NCBI GenBank assembly: GCA_965287045.1
Contig: OZ336877.1
Location: 29,326,001-29,390,000 of the forward strand
DNA length: 64,000 nucleotides
DNA from: Carcharhinus amblyrhynchos
Lineage: Eukaryota
Direction of reading: 5' to 3'
Of this stretch, positions 3,813-64,000 are shown in pieces; within the stretch, counting starts at the first letter, position 1, and the number at the start of each line of letters is the position of its first letter. A program made the position numbers and the translations under genes. The notes below the pieces were generated by a model. That model had not been told where the DNA came from. It did no database searches and was given only the letters and a program-made list of their open reading frames with translations.

Positions 3813-4453
3813 ATAGAATCTCTTGAAATATTATTCACCGATTCACAAACAGTATCTATACCATAGGGATCCCAAAATTCAGAATTTCAATAAGCCAGCT
3901 GATATTTTTATTACAATGACAAACATCTTTAAATGAATAAATCAAGTTACTATGACTCAGTTACTGTAGGATGTCAGCGCAACCAAAACATAATGCACTT
4001 GCCACTAATTTGAGAGACAAAGCTGCTAGATTCTCTGCTTCACACTTGTTGCTTGGCTAGAAACTACTTACCAAAATGGTTTCCTGAGGTTGTGTTTTAA
4101 ACTATTGCCATAAAAAAACGTGCGTCATTTGTGTTTAGTTAAATTTTGCACCACTGTTACTTCAAGAATTAAAAGTGGCGCACAAACCATCACATTTTAA
4201 CAACACGGTTACTCAGTGTATAGCCAATCGATAAGAGAAACTATTAATTGGCTTCCACTGTAAAAAGATCAGATGGCAAAATGTGAATGCATAAATTTGA
4301 AATAATTTCTGTGGTTTATATACACTACTGGCAGTTGTCGTTAGTGAGAGTCAAGGTATACTTTTATGTAAACAATTACGATTGGAGTCACTCTCCTCCC
4401 ATCAAGTTTATTATTCAGTATTGACATAACACCAAATATATCAATTTTCATAC

Positions 4454-4566
4454 CTTCCCTACTGGTACATTTTTAACATCTTCAACAAATACCACTTCTC
4501 TAAGTGGCCACTGTTCTTCATTTACTTTCTCTTCCTCTTTAGGTGCTGGAGTGGAACGTCTGCGCT
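4454..4566 (-). CDS. UBR5: UBR5 exon 16: (K)RRRSTPAPKEEEKVNEEQWPLREVVFVEDVKNVPVGK
   Basis: atacag| acceptor, |gtatga donor; 113 nt. Confidence 0.96.
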
Positions 4567-4675
4567 CTGTATTAGAAGAAAGAGTTAACCAATCATACCT
4601 GAGCAGTTACAATATAATATTTATTAAAAACTGTCCTGATACACAATTCACTAGTACTAGTGAACTGTACTAGCA

Positions 4676-5548
4676 CTGGTATGGAAGGACTGGGTTATGA
4701 GGAAAGATTGGGTAAATTGGGACTGTGTTCCTTAGAAAGGCAGAGATTGAGGGGGGATCTAATAGAGGTGTATAAGATAATGAAGGGTACAGATAGAGTA
4801 AACAGTGGCAAGCTTTTTCCTAGATTGGAGACAAATATCACAAGGGGCCACGGGCTTAAGGTGAGGGGGGTGACGTATAATTTGGATGCTAGCGGGAGGT
4901 TTTTCCACACAGAGGGTCATGGGGGTATGGAATGTACTGCAAAGTAAGGTGGTGGAGACAGGCACGCTGGGCTTGTTTAAGATTTACTTAGATAGACGCA
5001 TGAGCGAAATAGGGATGGAGGGTTATCGGAGACTGTTTTAAATAAAGATCAGAGCCTCGGGATATTCCTGGAAATCAACTGTTACATGTTGACGTTTTTC
5101 TCTTTTACGCCACAGCTGCGTCGGTCCACCTTGTTGTCTAATGAGGGGCATACACGCGGTGGGTCGTGCATGGGCTGCTCTTGGATGTTTCAAGAGTAGC
5201 CTAGTACTTTGCGTATGCTTAAGCTGGACCAGCAGATGGGCACCACGACAGCTCAGTGACTATCACTGTTTGCTGTGCAGACACATGGATTTGGGCCAGT
5301 ATCTGTGGAAGTTTGCGCGTTCTCCCTATGGTTGCGTACGTTTCCTCCCACACCCCAAAGATGTGCTCTTAGGCTAACTGGTGTAACAAATTGTCCCTAA
5401 ATTATTCTCCCCTTAATCTGGTTTCCAATGGGGGTACCATAAGCATAGACATGGGTCAAGGGTGGAGGAGGAAAAGCACATTGTTAAAATGGTGGCGCAG
5501 GCTCGTTGGGCCAAAGGGCCTGTTTCCCGTGCTGTGTTGTTCTTTGTA
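4676..5548 (+). mobile_element. CR1 3' fragment with an extended tail containing a V-SINE-like segment
   Basis: ORF 4660..4947 (GLGYEERLGKLGL, RGDLIEVYKIM, TRGH); ~5300-5400 resembles the HE1 central domain; ends in a gggccaaagggcctgtttc tail. Confidence 0.75.
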
Positions 5549-5841
5549 CTAACAAAATGAAACACTATCTCTGCTGCTTGTGTTTATGGTTACTGAATCT
5601 CAGCACAGGAAGCAATCTGGCCCACCCTACCTCTACCAGATCCTAGAAAGAACCAACAATCGTTTTCCATAGTTTTATCCATATCCTTGCAATTTTGCTC
5701 TCTGCAAGTATTACCTAATGCCTTTTATAAAGATTACCATGAAATCTGCTTCCACCACCCTTTCAGGTTTGCATTTCAGATCATAACTGACCATTTGAAA
5801 ACTGACAAACTACAGAATCTCTCCTTTTTTGTAATACTTAC

Positions 5842-5951
5842 TATAGGGAAGTGATGCACTACTAGCAATAGAGGATGCATCACTGCAAGTGGATGCTGGA
5901 GATGGTGGTGGCCCCATTTCAGTCTTCACAGATTCCTGTTTGCTCTCAGTC
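5842..5951 (-). CDS. UBR5: UBR5 exon 15: TESKQESVKTEMGPPPSPASTCSDASSIASSASLPY
   Basis: atacag| acceptor, |gtaagt donor; 110 nt. Confidence 0.95.
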
Positions 5952-7734
5952 CTGTATCAGAAAAATGACATTATATCCATATTTCAAAACAAGAGTTGTA
6001 GGCTATTCTACCATGAAGTTATATTCAGTAAAACTAATTCTGAACAATCCATTCAGATACGGGCAAATCAAAATAAAAGATGAATCATTTTAAATAAACT
6101 GATTCAACTCTTTATTAAAAGCAGATTATGCTAATCCAGAATCCACTTGTGCAATTATTCCAAAAAATTGGATTTTTTTCTTCATACAAAGATATGTTCT
6201 CAATATCACACTTGGAATGTGGTTGAACATGTTGATTTAACAATGAGTGAATTTAAGATCAGTCATTTTATTTCAATAAACTTTGAACTCAAACTGAGAA
6301 ATAATGCTGAATTTTGCAGTGGAAATAGAAATGAGATCAACCACCTTCACCTTTAGTTACCTGGAAATCAGACAGTAACTTCCAGCAAATCATGCAGTTA
6401 AAATGAGAACGTGCCCAAGATGTGACTTCTTAAAGCTTCCCGAAGAAACACTACGTCACCTGACTCACTATTCAAAGACGTTTGGAGGTGAGAAAGTGAA
6501 ATTTCTGTGCTTACCTGATACATATGCACTAGTATCACCAGGAAAATGTTGGAAATGGTAATTCTTAATTACAGCTAAATAACCATCCTGACCTTGAAAA
6601 TTAACTTTTACAGTGTGAAGTCCAGTTCCTTCAGATTTTACCTACTGTTAAAGTTTTCAAAAATAAAATGCTGATTGATTGAGTTCATTTTTCCTGTTCA
6701 CATTCCAGCAGTTCTGTAGAGGGGGTATCGATTTTTGTGTTTCTACTTTACACTAAGCCTTAGTCCAAAACCTCACAAAGTACCGCAAATGACTGGTTGT
6801 GTTCATTTGCCACAGAGCAAAACATGGCCTTAAGTGCTCAAAGGAGAGCAACATCGTGCATTGGACTAACATTTTAATAACTGATATCAAGTGCAGCTAA
6901 AACAAACTCAATTTTGTCTGTTGAGCAAGCATGTCACAGAACATGACAGTAACAAATTAGTCTTTTTCTAGTGCAGGAAGGAGGATGCAAGCAAAAGAGA
7001 AAAAATGTTAATACATTTACAAAATTCAATGTCAAAGGACATCGGAAATTCACATTACATCATACTAGATATTAATGGAGTTAAGATTTTAGGATTTATT
7101 TAGAAAGCACAAAATGGTTCTCCTGATGCAGTGCAAAAAAAATCCAAAGGGAGCATGCATTGAAGAATAAATACTTCAATCTAAACTGTGCCTTTCAAGT
7201 TAAAAGTTTTCGGGCAGCATTTCAGCTGAAATCTTTCATCTAACAAATGGCACCTCTGGTGAAGAAGCAGTTCCTCAATATTACACTGAAGAGCTAGCCT
7301 AAATAATGCTATCAAACCCTGACATGTGAATTGAATTCAGACAGTTTCAATACCAAGTGATGTGATTAGTAGGATTAATAAGTACTTAAAAGATTAACAA
7401 TTAAATTTGCTGTCATTTAAAGGATTCCATAATTTTTTACTACATTTAATAAAGTTCATCCTGTAAAATTAGTGTTGGGTTTATTTTAGGAAGACACGTT
7501 TGGCCATGCTTTTGATTAATGAGTGTGATGGGGCTGATTGATAGTTTGCACTTCAAAACTCATACGTGGAATTAATCAAGACAATTGTTTTCAACCAATT
7601 AACATCAGATGTATAACCGTGCTCAATCGACACAAAGGCACTGCACACATGGGTGGTGGATTAAGGACATTACATATATCCAGCCTAAGACATTTCAAGT
7701 ACAAACAAGGTATAGCATTGCATCAATGACTTAC

Positions 7735-7919
7735 TTATTTTCAGTGCTTTTAGACAATTTTTCTAAGTTTTTCAAACTTTCTGGTGATCGCAGCTGGAAC
7801 CGACAGCTGTCATTCATATTCCAAACGGACTCCATCAATACACCAACTTTTGGAATGCCAGCACTAATGGAAAAAGCTACTGCTCCAGCATGATAAAGTG
7901 GATTATTTCTCAAACACAC
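7735..7919 (-). CDS. UBR5: UBR5 exon 14: VCLRNNPLYHAGAVAFSISAGIPKVGVLMESVWNMNDSCRFQLRSPESLKNLEKLSKSTEN(K)
   Basis: ORF 7731..7919; attag| acceptor, |gtaagt donor; 185 nt. Confidence 0.96.
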
Positions 7920-8254
7920 CTAATGGAATAAAATTATATTTCTTCACTTGGCACTTAGTTTAGACACAACTAATTGATCCAATTTAACTTATTCAGCTTC
8001 TGTACATTTTAAGATGGAACTTAGTCTTTCAATTTGAATGCATACAGTGGAATCGCCTGCATAAAAGTACAACGCAAGCTTATCAGATTTAAAACACCCC
8101 CTTCCCTCTTCTGTAATACAACCATCTTATTCAGTTAATACATTTACAAAATTCAATGTCAAAGGGCATTTGAAGTTCACGTTACATCATACCACATACT
8201 AATGGAGTTAAGATTTTAGGATTTATTTAGAAAGCACAAAATGGTTCTTCTGAC

Positions 8255-8372
8255 CTGTGTTCCAACAGTGATATTGGGCATTGATGAAATGCCTGCATTG
8301 GACTTTGGTTTTTTGTTTTTGGCTCTTGCCTTCTCAAGCATCTTTTTCCGTTGGCTGAAAGGCACTACTCCC
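8255..8372 (-). CDS. UBR5: UBR5 exon 13: GVVPFSQRKKMLEKARAKNKKPKSNAGISSMPNITVGTQ (basic NLS-like stretch)
   Basis: tttag| acceptor, |gtcaga donor; 118 nt. Confidence 0.96.
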
Positions 8373-8867
8373 CTAAACAGAAAGGAAAGTCACCTGATTT
8401 AGTAAACTGAGGTATAAAGTAGTTCATTATTACACTTGAGAACTGTTATAAAATTAGCTGCTAAGCAAGTACACTGAATGACTTCGTTTCTGTCAATCAG
8501 ATGACTGCCTTCCCCAGAAAGTAAGAAAACAAGGCATCTAGGCTGGTGGACAGTGGACAGAGGGCAAATTTTCTTAGTCATATCCTGATAAATATTGTAA
8601 ATGAATCACTGAAAAAACAAGATAAGAGTGGGGTTCCAATCCATAAAATTAAAATAAGATAAACCAGGATTATGGACAAGTTAGCTTGACATCAGTACAA
8701 AGTAAAATACTGAGTATCTTGAGAGAGAGAGCAGGGAGATGTTGGATACTGCAGAACATAAGAAAAAGGAGCAACAGTAAGTCATTTTTCTACTTGGATT
8801 GACTAATCAAAGCCAACATACATGCTTCACCAACATGCTGACATTTAAAAATACATTCAACACTCAC

Positions 8868-9022
8868 CACCAATACAGGCTATTTTCCAGTTGGACACAG
8901 GTATATAGGGCACAACAATGCAAAGATATAATCTTTTCTCCTTGCAACTCCGGAAAAATCTGGGCACTGTGTTCCAGTTTAGAGGCTACAGAACACAAAG
9001 TCTCATCTACCCATGTGGCAAC
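8868..9022 (-). CDS. UBR5: UBR5 exon 12: VATWVDETLCSVASKLEHSAQIFPELQGEKIISLHCCALYTCVQLENSLYW(W)
   Basis: cctag| acceptor, |gtgagt donor; 155 nt. Confidence 0.96.
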
Positions 9023-17479: not shown

Positions 17480-17639
17480 CTCCAGGTAAATATGATTCAC
17501 TCGCTGTATCATCGCCATCGTCTCCATCTTCATCATCACGGCTAAGCAGGTTGTTTACAGCAAGGTTAACATCCAAATTAGTCCTCTGCAGTTCCCGAAT
17601 TATAACACTTCTGGATTTGCCTTGCAGTACCACTTGTGC
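17480..17639 (-). CDS. UBR5: UBR5 exon 7, UBA domain: [53 protein letters not shown]
   Basis: aaacag| acceptor, G|gtttgt donor; 160 nt; recognisable EDD UBA sequence. Confidence 0.96.
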
Positions 17640-17859
17640 CTGTTTACAAGAAACAAAGACTCAGCAGCAGTATACAAAGAATTCCATTTAAAAGGATGCA
17701 AAATATTAGTTTAAGTTTCTAAAGGAAAGCTCGTAGAAAATTTACAGACACTTGAGAAGATGACAAGTTTTCTGAAGATGGGCAAAATATGGCCGACATT
17801 TGAAATAAAATTAGAAAATGCTGGACAACACTCAGGCATATCTACATTTCTTGAATTCT

Positions 17860-18110
17860 AGCATTCCCCAGTGTTCCACCAGTGGTGACCATGCCTTCAG
17901 TTTCCAAGGCACCAAGCTCTAGAATTTCATCCCAACACCTCACCCCTTCATATTTCTCCTTTAAGAGATTCCATTAAATCTAACTCTGACAAAGCTTTTG
18001 GTCACCTCATCCAATATTGCATGTGGCCCACTGTTCATTTTATAATGCTCCTGCAAGCACCTTGGGATGGTTCATTACAGTAAATGTGATATAAATACAA
18101 GCTGTTGTTA
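17860..18110 (+). mobile_element. L2-type LINE 3' tail
   Basis: gtgaccatgccttcag...aagcttttggtcac...caccttgggatg...ataaatacaagctgttgtt. Confidence 0.6.
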
Positions 18111-18238
18111 AAGTACTCAGCACGTTAGGCAACATCTGTGCAGAGACAGAGTGGTCCCAGGTAAACAACCTGAAATGTTAACTGTACCTCTCCACAGATG
18201 CTGCATGACCAGAGTATTTTCAGCATTTTGTGTTTTTC
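18111..18238. repeat. Degenerate inverted-repeat Penelope-associated short element
   Basis: actcagc...catctgtgcagaga / ctctccacagatgctg...agtattttcagcatttt arms; same family as the copies at 62259 and 62870. Confidence 0.55.
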
Positions 18239-19569
18239 TCTCTAAATAAAGAACTGCTGCCATAGTTGCTCAATTGAAAATAAGAGAAAACATCAAGTGA
18301 CGATGAAAGCGAAAGCTTTAATGTCCAGGTATTAACTTTTATCTTAAGCTATTTTAATAATTTATGTGCTGAATTCGCCATTCAAGATCATCAAGAAACA
18401 AGTGTGTAAAGAGCTCAGCTTCCAACTATCCATTTAACTTGGCACTTAGCCTTTTTAAAGTAAAAATGCCTGGGATTTGGGCATCACTGGAAATTCCAGC
18501 TTTTACTGGCCATCCAAAGATGCCTCAAGGAAGTGATAGAAGGCCATTTTCTGGAACCAGTCAATATGAGGCACTTTCACAATGCTGTTGGGGAGCAAGA
18601 TGCATATTTTCAACAGTGATGATAAATGATCCTGAAAAGCTGCATCATGCCACTGGCAAACACTAAAAGAATGCAATCAAGCCATCACTGAAAATATGCA
18701 AAGCCAGAAATGAACAATGTCCTTCTTTCAATTATACATGCATTTCTCAGATGTCTGCACTACTCATTTAACCAAGATGTGCATCAAGGTGCACTTGCAC
18801 AACAACTACTCGATGTGGCCCATGTAATTCTGTCATTGGGGAATTTACCCCACTTGAATTGAAAGACAGATCCAATGGTACTGTAAAACTATGAAAACAC
18901 AGTCATAAACTTAGACGTGCCTAGTTATTCAAATTTCAGTCCATGGCATCATTTTCTGGCTTTCACATTCCTCATTAGCTGGGAAGATCTAAGCAAGGCA
19001 AATGAAATCAGCATTATTGGGCTTGTAGAACAATGTGAGCCAGCAGTCAGCAGAGATGTAGTTTCTTCCTTTCATCAAACTAACAATCATAACCTCGTTG
19101 GGTCGTCATCTCATCTCCTTCAGTTGCTGGGTCAAAATCCTGGAACTCCTTAGTAGCAATATGGCTGCTCCTGCACACAAGGACCGCAGCGGTTCAAGAA
19201 GACAGCTCATTCCCACCTTCTAGTGAAATTACAGATAGGCTCCATATGCTGGCATAGTCAGCCACATCCACATCCCAGGAAAGAGCTTTTTTTTAAAAAC
19301 AAAGCTTCTGAAGAAAACAGCAACACAATTTACAGCAATACTGCAAAAGCCAGAGCATCTTTCAAGCAGGAGTGCTGTAAATTAAGTGAAATGCTCAATA
19401 ATTCATATCTGTTCCAGTTGCTACGAGTGTATGTTATATCAGCATGTCACTTCCAGTTTTCATAGCAACAGAATCTACATTGGATACATACTGGCATGAA
19501 AATAGAATTGACTAGTTCAAAGAAGCATTGAAAGTTCAAGGTACTTAGCACAGTTAGGTTATAGGGTCA

Positions 19570-21400
19570 GAGTTTCAAGCACAAAAACAGGCTCTTCGGC
19601 CCATCATGTCTGCACCAATCTATTCTAATCCCATTCAGAATAGCTGGAAAGCACATGGTCTAGTATGCTATGGTGTTTCAGGTGCTCATCTGAATGCTTC
19701 TACCACCCTTTCAGGCAGAGTTCCAGATTCCCACCACCCTCTGGGCATAAAATGTTTTTCCTCAAATTTCCTCCAAATCTTTCCCCCATATCTTAAATAT
19801 ATGCCCCCTGGCTACGAACCCTTCCAATGAAGGGAAAAAGTTCCTTCCTAACTACCCTATGTCCCTCAATTTTGGGCACCTCGATCAGGTTGCCCCCTCA
19901 GCCTTCTGTGCTGCAAGGAAAACAATCCCAGCCTAACCAGCCTCTCTTCATAGCCAAAATCCCATGTCACCAGAGGCTGGAATTGAACCTGGGTCCCAGA
20001 CCTGAGGCAACAGTGCTAACCACTGTGCCACCCTCAATCAGGTCCTTTCCTCAGCCTTCTCTGGTCTACAGCAATCCAAGCCTTTCCAACCTTTCTTCGT
20101 GCTCAAATGCTCCATCCCAGGAAACGTCCTGGTGAACATCCTCTGCATCCTTTCTATAGTGTGGCAATCAGAATTGCACATAGTACTCTAGCTGTGGCCT
20201 AACAAGTGTTTTATACAGCTCCATAATAACCTCCTGATCTTATATTCTATGTAAGAAGTCTTACAACAGCAGGTTAAAGAAGTTTAACCTGCTGTTGTGA
20301 GACTTCTTACTGTGCTTAACCCAGTCCAATGCCAGTATCTCCACATCATGCTTATATTCTATACCTTGGCTAATAAAGGCAAATATCCCACATGCTACCT
20401 TATCTATCTGTCCTGTTGCCTTCAAGGATCTGTGGACATGCACCCCAAGGTCCTTCTGATCCTCTGCACTACTTAATGTCCTACCGCTTATTGTATATTC
20501 CCTTGCCTTGTTCGAACTCCAAATATGCAAAACCTCACACTTAAAGGTTAAATCCCATTTGTCACTGTTCTCCCCACCTAACAAGCGTGTCTATACCATC
20601 TGGTAATCAAAGGCTTTCCTCCTCACTATTTATCACACCAATTTTCATGTCATCTGCAAACTTACTGATCAGACCCCATTTTCACATCTAAACCATGAAT
20701 GTACACCACTAGGCACAGCTTCCAAAAACAACCTTCAATCATCACCCTCTGCCTCCTTTTAGTAAGACCATTTTGGATCCAATTTGTCAAACTGCCCTGG
20801 ATCCCATGGGCTGTTAACTTCTTGAGCAGAGTCCCATGTGGGACCCTGTCAAAAGCCTTACTGAAGTCCATGTAGAGTACATCAACTGCACTTAATGCAT
20901 CTAAACATCTAGTCACTTAAAGAATTTCAATCAAATTTATCAGACATGATCTCTCCTTGACAAAGCCATGCTGACCATCCTAGATTAATCCTTGCCTCTT
21001 CAAGATTAATCCTATCCCTCTGAACTTTTTCCAATAATTTTCCAACCATTGATGTTACTGTCTTGTAATTACTTGGTTTATTCCTACTTCCCTTCTTGAA
21101 TAATGATACCATATGAACTGTCCGACACTCATTTATTTTCAATTCCCCTGTAGTTTGTATACTCTTCTGGGGCTTCCATTGTTTTAAAGCCCCCTACATA
21201 CACCTTCAGCCTCCATTTTCCCCCTTATACAATCCTATATATTCCTTGACATTTAGGGTTCTCTGGACTAGTTGGTCCTGACCTACACCTTTACAGGAAC
21301 ATGTTGGCCCTTCCTTTAAGAAGGGCTCCACTGCTCTGATGGGATCTTCCTACAAGGAACTGCTCCTCGTCCACTTTGACCATATTCTGTCCTATCATCT
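19570..21400 (-). mobile_element. Decayed CR1 LINE with a nested SINE fragment (~19965-20032) and a nested Penelope mini-element
   Basis: ORFs 20662..20916 (YMDFSKAFDRVPH), 20927..21142, 20261..20584. Confidence 0.85.
20251..20350. mobile_element. 100-bp Penelope-like fold-back mini-insertion with 12-bp TSD
   Basis: 28-bp arms (20251-78 / 20283-310); flanking direct repeat cttatattctat at 20239-50 and 20351-62. Confidence 0.8.
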
Positions 21401-31676: not shown

Positions 31677-31878
31677 AGTCATGATGTAGAGATGCCAGCG
31701 TTGGCCTGGGGTAAACACAGTAAGAAGTCTCACAACACCAGGTGTAAGTCCAGCCAGTTTACAGGATAGTAATCCCACAAGCTTTCAGAAACGGTGTTCG
31801 GAACGCCGTTTCCGAAAGCCTGTGGGATTACTATCAAACAAACCGGCTGGACTTAAACCTGGGGTTGTGAGGCTTCTT
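31677..31878. mobile_element. Penelope-like fold-back element with 12-bp TSD, nested in an old CR1
   Basis: ~83-bp inverted arms centred at 31800; flanking gctgtagatgga at 31665-76 and 31879-90; same terminus as the copy at 63805. Confidence 0.8.
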
Positions 31879-32089
31879 GCTGTAGATGGATACAAACAGG
31901 CTGTTCAAATTTTGGAACAGAAAAACAGTTGGTCATTGTACTATATTTACAGCCCCCTGATAGGACTTAGTGCCCATCATTACTTCACTTTGTTTTTCTT
32001 ACTTTTAGCACTACTGCAAATTTTTCTTCAGTCATTTTGTTCTTTATAACTTCTCAATCTTTTGCTGCACTCCCAGTCCTTCTACTTAA

Positions 32090-61199: not shown

Positions 61200-62080
61200 C
61201 CTACTTACCTACCTCTCTCCCAAGGGTGGCGAAGACTTTCTCGACCATCCCCTCCCTTCGCCGGGGGAAGCATTGTCTGCGACCAAAAAAAAACAGCCCT
61301 TCCGTTCCCTCCAGACTCGGACTCCCCCCACGGGGAACATCGGCCTTGATTTCCAACACCCTCCCCACAACGTCCCCCCCCCCAACCAAAAAAAAGTCCA
61401 AACCTCCCCCTCTCCACCCATCCCCCACCCCACAGGCCTCCCCAAGGCCTGGGGCCCCCCGCCGCTCACCTGTCGTTGAGCTGATCTTCGGTGCCCGGTA
61501 AGGGATGAACCACAAAGTGGATGGATGTCATGTTGGGGCTGGACAAGTGGGGGGAAGGAGGAGGAAAGGAGAAAGCGGCCGAACCCGCGCCGCGCCACCA
61601 CACACACAGGGAGGGAGGGGGGTGGGGAAAGGGAGGAATCAAAATAAATAAATTCGGATTTACAGGTTCAATCCCTCCTTTTTTTGTCCCAAACAGTTTT
61701 GGTTTTTTTTGTGCCGGGGGTTTATTAGTGCCAGGGGGTATTCAGGCGGCCGGCGGTGGATTTTTTTTTGACACCCGCCGCTTCAGCAAGCCGCTGCCGC
61801 CGCCGCCGCCATCTTACTGTTGACCAGCCCGCACCATCAGAGGAGCTCGCTCATTGGTCGCGCCCGCACGGCCAGCCGGCGGATGTGACGAGCTTTCCGA
61901 TTGGCCCGCCCGTCGGAACACCATTCCGGGGGGGCGGGGAGAGGCAGGGAGGACGGGATTGGCCGCCGGTCAAGTGACGCAAGGCCGCGCACGTGACTGC
62001 AGGTCAGCCGGGGGCCATTGTGAGGGGCGGACACGTGATAGAGGCAGGGACTGGAGCCACAGGGGGCAACTTCGGAGTGC
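61200..62080 (-). promoter_or_regulatory. CpG-island promoter and 5'UTR of UBR5
   Basis: GC/CpG-rich island in an AT-rich, CpG-poor background. Three minus-strand CCAAT boxes (61853-57, 61900-04, 61958-62), GC boxes (~61931, ~62024), CRE half-sites TGACG (61886, 61975), E-boxes CACGTG (61990, 62032), YY1-type CGCCATCTT (~61807-61815). No TATA box seen. Confidence 0.88.
61470..61531 (-). CDS. UBR5: UBR5 coding exon 1 (start codon): MTSIHFVVHPLPGTEDQLND(R)
   Basis: ATG at 61531-61529; the peptide matches the recalled vertebrate UBR5 N-terminus; 62 nt; donor AG|gtgagc. Confidence 0.97.
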
Positions 62081-62099: not shown

Positions 62100-62870
62100 T
62101 GACATATATGTTATATTTAACATGTAAAACATATAGCACATACATAAAACATATATGTTATATTTAGCGTATAAAACATATAACCCATACATACAACAGA
62201 TAGCTATAGAAAACATATGTACGTATAACATACAAAACATATCTATAAAGTGTACAACAAAAACAGAAAATGCTGGAAAATCTCAGCAGATCTGACAGCA
62301 TCTGAGGAGAGCGAATAACATTTCAAATCTAGATGACCCTTTGTCAGAGCTATATAATGTTATATTTAACAAATACATCGAACATATATAAAACATAGTA
62401 CATATATGTAACATTTAACATATAAACCATACATATATAAACATGCATATAACATATGTTATTCCATTCCAACCCTTCAAGCCTATCCAACATTTTGATC
62501 ATTGATGATCATCAACTTCAATATCCTGATCCCCTCCATATCCCTTCATCCCTTTAGCCCCAAGAGCAATATCTAATTTCTTCTTGAAATCAGAAATGTA
62601 AAACATATATGCATATAACATATAACATATATACATATAACATTTATACAAGTTATAGATAACACACAACATATAAAAATATATATATAACGCATATAAG
62701 TATAACTTTTTTTGTTTAGTATTGTCATATATATTGGTATACAGTGAAAATGTGTAAGAACGTAGAAGAGAGTATGTCCAAGGTGCAAGGGGTTCTTGAT
62801 TATACTGGCTACTTTTCTGAGGCAGCAGGAAGAGTAGGCATGACATATATATACAAAACATATATATAAA
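62100..62870. repeat. AT-rich degenerate minisatellite (acatatatgttatatttaacat...aaaacat), interrupted by TE fragments
   Basis: Recurrent ~45-bp unit at ~62102, 62149, 62352, 62401 and 62605. Confidence 0.7.
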
Positions 62871-63005
62871 GGGAAAATACTGCCGATGCTCGAATCTGAA
62901 TCAAAAACAGAAAATGCTGGAGAAACTCAGCAGGTCTGACAACACCTGTGGAGAGAAAATACAGCCAGTGTTTCGAGTCAGGATGACTCTTCATCAGAGC
63001 TAAAG
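62870..63005 (-). mobile_element. Penelope-associated short repeat with a hammerhead ribozyme core
   Basis: Minus strand CTGATGA-A-GAGTC-atcct-GACTC-GAAA at 62997-62971; sister copies at 62259-62351 and 63630-63790. Confidence 0.7.
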
Positions 63006-63169
63006 GCAAAAAAATCAGATCAAATTTATACAATGAGGATTGAGAGAGTGCTGGAATTGGACAAGGGAATGTAAATGGTGATGATAAAGGCTGAGAAGGG
63101 TGCTAAGAGCGTCCATACATATAAGTTATATATAGTATATATACATACATAAATGTATTAAACATACAT

Positions 63170-63460: not shown

Positions 63461-63804
63461 TCAATATCAAATAACCATGTATGTTTCCAGATTCTCCATC
63501 AGCCAGCCAACCAATCTAGGTCAACATCAGTGCAATGTAAAAGCTAATATAACCACCAAGAATAGCACAGAAAGGAATTGATAACCTTTTACAGGGAAAG
63601 ATCTTGTAACTTCATAAAAAATAATAACACAAAGTGCTGAAAGAGCTTACTGGAAAAGCAGATCTGGCAGTATCCATGGAGAAAGAAACAAGAGTTAATG
63701 TTTCAAATCCGATAAGACTCTTCTCCGGAACTGAAGAAGATCCTAAAGAACAATCATATTGGATTCAAAATGTTAACTCGTGTTTGTCTCTGAAAATGTT
63801 TTGG

Positions 63805-64000
63805 AGATGCCAGTGTTGGATTGGGGTAAACACAGTAAGAAGTCTCACAACACCAGGTTAAAGTCCAACAGGTTTATTTGGTAACAAAAGCCACTAGCTT
63901 TCGGAGTGCTTGCTGCCCCTTTGTCAGGTGAATGGGAGTTCTATTCACAAACAGGGCATATAAAGACACAAACTCAATTTATAAAATAATGATTGGAATG
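63805..64000 (-). mobile_element. Penelope-like element terminus (pLTR) running off the window
   Basis: Same terminus as 31686 and 20311-20350; degenerate hammerhead core cacCTGACAAA...ctccGAAAgctagtg at 63930-63892. Confidence 0.7.

Follow-up and report, generated by a model that had tools for sequence, protein, structure and literature searches.

The hammerhead ribozyme motif near UBR5 is best explained as a decayed minimal hammerhead, likely inactive, which sits in the truncated terminal repeat of a Penelope-like element (PLE) and lies close to this gene probably by chance. From sequence comparisons, we give this reading a probability of roughly 0.85, together with a run-off mechanism in which short copies of the family would arise at the 5' end of the element's RNA.

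The motif upstream of UBR5 and its carrier

All parts of the proposed motif are present exactly as claimed on the minus strand, from 63001 to 62963 of the window (the whole stretch of 64,000 nucleotides that was analysed). These are 4-bp stem I arms, the CUGAUGA box (62997-62991), an extra A, stem II, the GAAA box (62974-62971), and CACU. The motif (62963..63001) is thus a degenerate minimal type-I hammerhead whose core boxes and stems I and II are intact. Stem II has 5 bp, all of them Watson-Crick, and the minimum-energy fold predicted by RNAfold consists of stems I and II (-9.7 kcal/mol). The changed positions are 16.2 (62969) and 16.1 (62968), with the putative cut site between 62967 and 62966. 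As position 16.2 is A and position 16.1 is C, the A15.1-U16.1 pair and the stem III palindrome are lost and cannot form. No pair is possible in a modelled intermolecular stem III, and the modelled dimer with stem III reaches -4.8 kcal/mol, compared with -13.9 for the majority sequence of subfamily A1, to which this copy belongs. The loss of the pair and of the palindrome and the weak dimer model agree with the original prediction that this copy is probably inactive, and we regard it as very likely so.

By itself, the bare pattern CUGANGA...GAAA is no commoner in the window than chance would allow: it matches 11 times, shuffled sequence gives 6.9 matches on average, and 9 of 100 shuffles have 11 or more. 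A full minimal-hammerhead descriptor had 0 matches in the window, the UBR5-proximal copy included. A search for Rfam hammerheads, which had been suggested as a check, gave no match in the window at E<=5, nor at three loci with intact family motifs at E<=10. The minimal form appears to fall outside the Rfam hammerhead models. The motif draws its significance from the family and not from the bare pattern in the window.

The carrier is a copy of 251 bp (62866..63116, minus strand), the 5'-truncated 3' end of a Neptune/Nematis-type PLE of subfamily A1 (identity to the A1 majority 216/250, 86%). Counted from C3, it runs from -120 to +131 and contains 120 nt of 3' UTR, the hammerhead, and the downstream repeat with 'tail' to +131. 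The motif had been placed in a short repeat. This carrier is neither free-standing nor a retrozyme; it is the terminal repeat (pLTR) of an autonomous-type PLE, whose 3' UTR makes up the 120 nt upstream. A TATA box-like motif at 63024..63030 (minus strand), 33 nt before C3, is a putative pLTR core promoter, and the start predicted from it is the first base of stem I. The insertion site is TA-rich simple sequence, which agrees with the AT-rich target preference of the anole PLE (PMC11167929). No clear target-site duplication was found around the copy.

The sister copies named in the original prediction were found at their places (62352-62256, ~18170, and ~63730), and all are damaged beyond stem III. 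The second, short A1 copy (62256..62352, minus strand, -5 to +97) has A8 opposite C3, so the 3-8 pair is broken, and part of stem I is deleted. At 63625..63736 (minus strand), sequence comparison shows an older and more decayed copy of the same repeat, with a degenerate box at ~63730. The third location, 18103..18247 in a UBR5 intron, is a head-to-head pair of truncated copies by sequence comparison; the copy at ~18170 is without a CUGA box. The two copies on the same strand lie 650 nt apart, but with both cores broken we rejected the idea that they form a functional dimer. Irregular TA-rich simple sequence (62100-63160) surrounds both of these copies beside the UBR5 CpG island.

A further PLE-type hammerhead repeat, of family B, lies at 63796..63965 (minus strand). 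It has a CAC/GUG stem I, an AGCU stem III, a damaged A8, and a TATA-like motif 35 nt before C3. An inverted partner follows ~316 bases beyond the window end (L001, ~2950), forming a head-to-head pair, and its CUGAUGA box is intact. The long inverted repeats at 31717-31883 and 20251-20310, with arms of 83 nt and 28 nt, also consist of family B-type ends, and their miRNA matches in Rfam are weak and spurious.

Contigs from four runs were compared with 62770-63105. Their coverage comes from paralogous copies, and such contigs cannot reveal starts or ends. A contig of 116 nt from run X9 agrees with 62974-63089 apart from a single difference and spans no insertion junction.

UBR5 was correctly recognised as the neighbouring gene. 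The genome's only match to the EDD UBA domain (PF11547) is an exon at 17526..17645 on the minus strand. The first coding exon, which we take to begin at 61531 from its recognisable N-terminal peptide, lies in a gene that has its own CpG-island promoter with CCAAT boxes. The 251-bp copy is on the same strand, ~1.1 kb upstream of this putative promoter.

The repeat family is as widespread as was expected. Searched with 161 bases from around the motif, the 2.92-Gb genome yielded 4,045 first-look candidates. In 80 evenly spaced 10-kb stretches (800 kb), an HMM search gave 50 copies, with 0 in the reversed control. Extrapolation from this 800-kb sample gives ~183,000 copies genome-wide (135,000-234,000), most of them decayed. 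With this density (one copy per 16 kb), a given promoter would have a copy within 1.2-2.2 kb upstream by chance in 7-13% of cases. With ~180,000 copies in the genome, a position ~1 kb from UBR5 therefore calls for no special explanation, and the nearness is probably chance. Co-option of the copy as an alternative promoter or regulatory RNA of UBR5 could draw on its strand, its distance, its preserved TATA box, and the fact that it alone among 19 unselected copies (see below) reaches beyond -8. We consider it highly improbable all the same, as the density already accounts for such nearness, the copy is 14% diverged with a broken core, and the gene is served by the CpG-island promoter.

The element and its hammerhead at family level

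Longer copies of the family have the order repeat–ORF (RT, CX4CxxC, GIY-YIG)–repeat. In L116, repeat–ORF–repeat extends across ~3.3 kb. L111 is a partial tandem in which the endonuclease end is followed by the 3' UTR, the hammerhead, and then the start of the ORF. In two sister copies, the sequence continues upstream for ~1 kb and enters a broken GIY-YIG frame that has a cysteine linker. A same-strand repeat lies downstream in 24 of 30 GIY-YIG loci (fetched with the upstream piece) and in 20 of 30 RT loci (fetched with the RT frame). The PLE loci show DKG, GVAMG, YIDD, CX4CxxC, and GIY-YIG motifs, and the CX2-5CxxC linker between RT and EN was matched 15 times in 60 loci. The pLTR traits of PLEs are present: direct repeats in L116, a partial tandem in L111, and, in 14 of the 46 unselected copies, another copy inverted upstream.

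A stop-free frame of 557 aa in L104 runs from RT through CX4CxxC to GIY-YIG. Among its homologues, which carry RVT_1 and PF26215 and in some cases GIY-YIG (PF01541) as well, the top named ones come from sharks and rays, and a cartilaginous fish is therefore the probable host. The direct Pfam score of the L104 RT is under the cut-off (E=2e-4). Only two frames out of 20 passed the RVT_1 cut-off; L065, one of the two, is an adjacent LINE-type RT rather than the PLE. Two RT frames used as PDB sequence queries found no meaningful match. The carrier is a Neptune/Nematis-type EN+ PLE, an assignment made by motifs and not by tree. Among the 114 RT matches listed, identity to the query is 36-76% (self match aside), most contain stops, and no intact copy of the hammerhead-bearing family was seen.

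Some further observations concern these loci. The frame at L065:2-1324 (441 aa, stop-free, RVT_1 E=2e-34), presumably CR1-like, lies directly upstream of a PLE endonuclease remnant and is probably a young insertion. L105, L111, and L116 have three pyrimidine-tract/AG sites within ~250 nt past the hammerhead, the first right before the ATG, and splicing may shape the start of the PLE ORF. L095:1282-2487 is an internally deleted copy in which the RT frame continues in frame into the downstream repeat. The ray gene models P0004, P0036, and P0119 bear host gene names, yet contain this PLE RT region, which suggests mis-annotation or exonisation.

This anatomy bears on the idea of a tandem non-LTR retrozyme family that spreads as small circular RNA. 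Retrozymes, which are related to PLE pLTRs, have been reported in one chondrichthyan genome, as have PLEs (bioRxiv 10.64898/2026.07.22.740005). The UBR5-proximal copy, however, is not in a tandem array but collinear with the 3' UTR of RT/GIY-YIG elements, and the copies are dispersed, decayed, and equipped with the two-ended PLE tail. We give retrozymes the slimmest of chances and assign the hammerhead to the PLE.

As anticipated for the family consensus, the majority has CUGANGA and GAAA-C-G-U-U; the added description as cleavage-competent goes beyond this, and the majority may be called a putative ribozyme. A 34-nt intact pattern has 141 exact matches in the genome, against 0 in the reversed control. 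In the 800 kb, the minimal-hammerhead descriptor picks out 10 motifs, 9 of them with a palindromic stem III; each of 10 shuffles gives 0-1. The descriptor motifs represent several families with differing stem I and stem II sequences.

The next counts are from 48 distinct descriptor motifs, a set that omits 60 pattern-selected primaries. The extra base, which the descriptor does not constrain, is A in 47 of 48. The 15.2/16.2 dinucleotide, equally unconstrained, is GC in 16, CG in 10, CA/TG (CpG decay) in 22, and nothing else. Thus, stem III is ACGU, AGCU, or a CpG decay product of ACGU in all 48, and N17 is other than G.

Between families A and B/C, the pair types differ at 2.1-2.3 and 10.2-10.4. 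Within family A, stem II is almost invariant. As the descriptor imposes stem pairing, support for stem covariation lies in the excess over shuffles. The presence of CUGANGA in the family majority and the varying stem II pairs between families leave the original prediction standing on both points. A stem I covariation (AGUU/AACU) in older A-type copies was noticed by eye, and the count did not support it (p=0.17). On this comparative evidence, the hammerhead fold is well supported at the family level.

The two subfamilies of family A differ in the core. A1 has C3-G8, is predicted to be cut after GUU, and has a U-G wobble at the base of stem I. A2 has U3-A8, a cut site after GUC, and a U-A pair at the same place. 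U3-A8 is a natural hammerhead variant that is active in vitro (Perreault et al. 2011, PMC3088659). A pattern that leaves positions 3, 7, and 8 free gave 1,084 exact A2-pattern matches. Among the first 100 listed, counted by eye, U3-A8 occurs 96 times, C3-A8 and U3-G8 twice each, and C3-G8 never. We also set the subfamilies by sites outside the core, using 166 of 299 copies and omitting pattern-selected primaries and copies that do not cover positions 3 and 8. On this assignment, 78 of the 83 A2 copies carry U3-A8, and the 82 A1 copies include 54 with C3-G8 and 24 with C3-A8 (CpG decay).

U3-A8 is probably derived because the other families have C3-G8. Perhaps G8 was first lost through CpG decay and C3 then changed to restore the pair. 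The switch happened once, in a single master lineage, and counts as one event, not as many independent changes. Still, a compensating core change in A2 suggests that the ribozyme once mattered to the element. A protein-coding cause of the change at positions 3 and 8 is excluded by an in-frame stop inside the core and an ATG only afterwards. Post-insertion selection on the core found no clear support in the non-CpG mismatch rates of either subfamily. In A1, the rate is 6.5% for the core and 9.4% for the downstream part (p=0.04, with a bias from end-trimming); in A2, the figures are 5.7% and 6.5% (p=0.38).

Copy ends and the proposed RNA cycle

We collected copies from random stretches and the window (n=46) by the segment downstream of the hammerhead. 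Their 5' ends are unselected because this segment was the only basis of choice. Of these copies, 19 reach -1, and 18 of the 19 stop at -1 to -8, with the mode at -4, the first base of stem I. Relative to the truncation rate from +36 to 0, such a stop has a binomial p of ~2e-15. The sole exception is the 251-bp copy upstream of UBR5. Only 3 of 46 5' ends lie just beyond the cut site (+31 to +36), and we rejected cleavage as the cause of the 5' ends. The 3' ends are bimodal, at ~+95 and ~+131, with 254 of 299 at +90-104 or +125-139. These two sites are ~35 nt apart, and both are beyond the cut site (+30/+31).

A TATA motif precedes C3 by 34 nt in the A1 and A2 majorities, though the intervening sequence differs, and by 35-36 nt in 11 of 24 distinct B/C-type copies. 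Pol II starts ~30 nt past a TATA box. Hence, the position of the motif predicts a Pol II start at about -4. Inverted segments upstream of the short copies L204, L213, and L231 include ORF-start sequence beyond +131. This sequence is present only in RNA from the 5' repeat and fits the 5' end of the mRNA as the template.

These ends suggest the following cycle for the active ancestors. Transcription by Pol II would have begun on the first base of stem I, ~30 nt past the TATA box of the pLTR, so that the PLE mRNA would have opened with ~39 nt of hammerhead. Since stem III is almost absent, cutting would need a partner and might occur only when two copies pair via the ACGU palindrome or with a protein of the element. 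RT would have been primed internally at ~+95 or ~+131 on uncut RNA. Priming near the 5' end of the mRNA would lead to run-off at the RNA start and to many stubs of 100-135 bp, and priming in the 3' repeat would give longer, 5'-truncated copies such as the one upstream of UBR5. In this scheme, cleavage would process the RNA or act as a brake under certain conditions, and would not set the insertion ends. On the pattern of ends, the short copies were probably made from uncut RNA.

The stop at -4 has other possible causes because the site resembles a splice acceptor and is a 4-nt palindrome. The A1 and A2 majorities have a pyrimidine tract with AG at -4/-3, and the palindrome is at -4. A splice acceptor or fold-back priming at the palindrome could therefore have set the stop in place of a transcription start. 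The intron of D. virilis Penelope ends at stem I (PMC4209133), self-priming has been proposed before (PMC3846280), and L207, L220, and L229 are head-to-head palindromes centred on the -4 site. The sequence upstream of the stop, however, consists of inverted element pieces or flank, with no shared exon. Moreover, TATA-like spacing of 34-36 nt is kept in unrelated families (the 11 of 24 B/C-type copies), and 5 of these 24 appear by eye to start at ~-6 to -3, where there is no AG. We find this explanation doubtful and prefer the TATA-driven start.

A published model by Cervera and De la Pena (PMC4209133) has the hammerheads in both repeats excise a unit-length RNA, which is ligated to a circle and reverse transcribed across the junction. 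Such a route would be expected to leave copies with an intact-looking hammerhead, like the long copy upstream of UBR5. It is also in keeping with a core that stayed pairing-compatible across subfamilies and with partial tandems such as L111. It leaves unexplained the sharp end at -4 shared by 18 of 19 copies, which a circle cannot give because it has no 5' end. In the anole PLE, hammerhead mutants left insertion in vitro unaltered, and no RNA-seq reads end at the cut site (PMC11167929). Circularisation is therefore an unlikely general route, although it could apply to a minority of long copies.

Keeping to run-off on uncut RNA, we tentatively extend the reading to the purpose of the ribozyme, with confidence somewhat short of even. 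The ~100,000 stubs would be cDNAs that began at one or the other of two internal RT start sites and ran off where TATA-driven transcription had started, on base 1 of the hammerhead. The ribozyme, rescued once by the CpG-removing U3-A8 swap, would have been selected for a job on the capped 5' end of the mRNA and not for making template ends. This job might be, e.g., dimer- or protein-triggered decapping that limits or times transposition.

Comparison with known hammerhead elements

The UBR5-proximal locus itself is ordinary, a dead transposon fragment. The family is a test case for the role of the hammerhead in the PLE cycle, given that insertion in vitro does not need it (PMC11167929). Two natural core variants in sister subfamilies, together with sharp copy ends, provide a ready construct pair and a predicted transcription start.

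Minimal hammerheads in the pLTRs of metazoan PLEs, vertebrates included, were described in 2014 (Cervera and De la Pena, PMC4209133). The motifs share with them type I, an extra nucleotide between 9 and 10.1, G10.1-C11.1, a short stem I, and a palindromic 15.2-16.2, and both occur mostly as solo truncated copies with some opposite-strand pairs. Cleavage by the minimal PLE hammerheads in the literature is poor and occurs in dimers or in the presence of the PLE protein (PMC4209133, PMC11167929). Our estimate of ~180,000 copies is far higher than the 4,000-9,000 intact motifs in coelacanth and Xenopus (PMC4209133), though the counts were made differently. Literature searches on sharks and core variants did not find these features in shark PLEs, although the supplements of PMC4209133 and of the 2026 preprint may list shark motifs.

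U3-A8: The variant is known from Cercyon elements of Schistosoma (PMC4209133). Here, U3-A8 occurs in a vertebrate subfamily beside a C3-G8 sister. The compensatory 3-8 pair is shared with natural U3-A8 hammerheads (PMC3088659). Those cases come from a cross-domain survey, whereas the switch described here splits two subfamilies of one retrotransposon in one genome.

Promoter: A putative TATA box has been noted in a pLTR of rotifer elements (PMC3846280). D. virilis Penelope has a TATA-less internal promoter (PMC2377424).

Element class: With Neptune/Nematis EN+ PLEs (PMC8557442), the family shares the RT, the CX2-5CxxC linker, the C-terminal GIY-YIG, and DKG, as well as partial tandems, inverted 5' copies, and a tail of 30-40 bp.

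RNA cycle: A parallel exists with Poseidon PAc of Anolis (Frangieh et al. 2024, PMC11167929), which uses an uncut RNA template, as proposed here, and has two RT start sites past the hammerhead that define the tail. The ORF of PAc starts inside the hammerhead, whereas here the hammerhead precedes the first in-frame ATG and has an in-frame stop in its core. The main text of that study describes no fixed 5' stop at the start of the hammerhead for PAc, and it is this stop that the predicted run-off would explain in the shark family.
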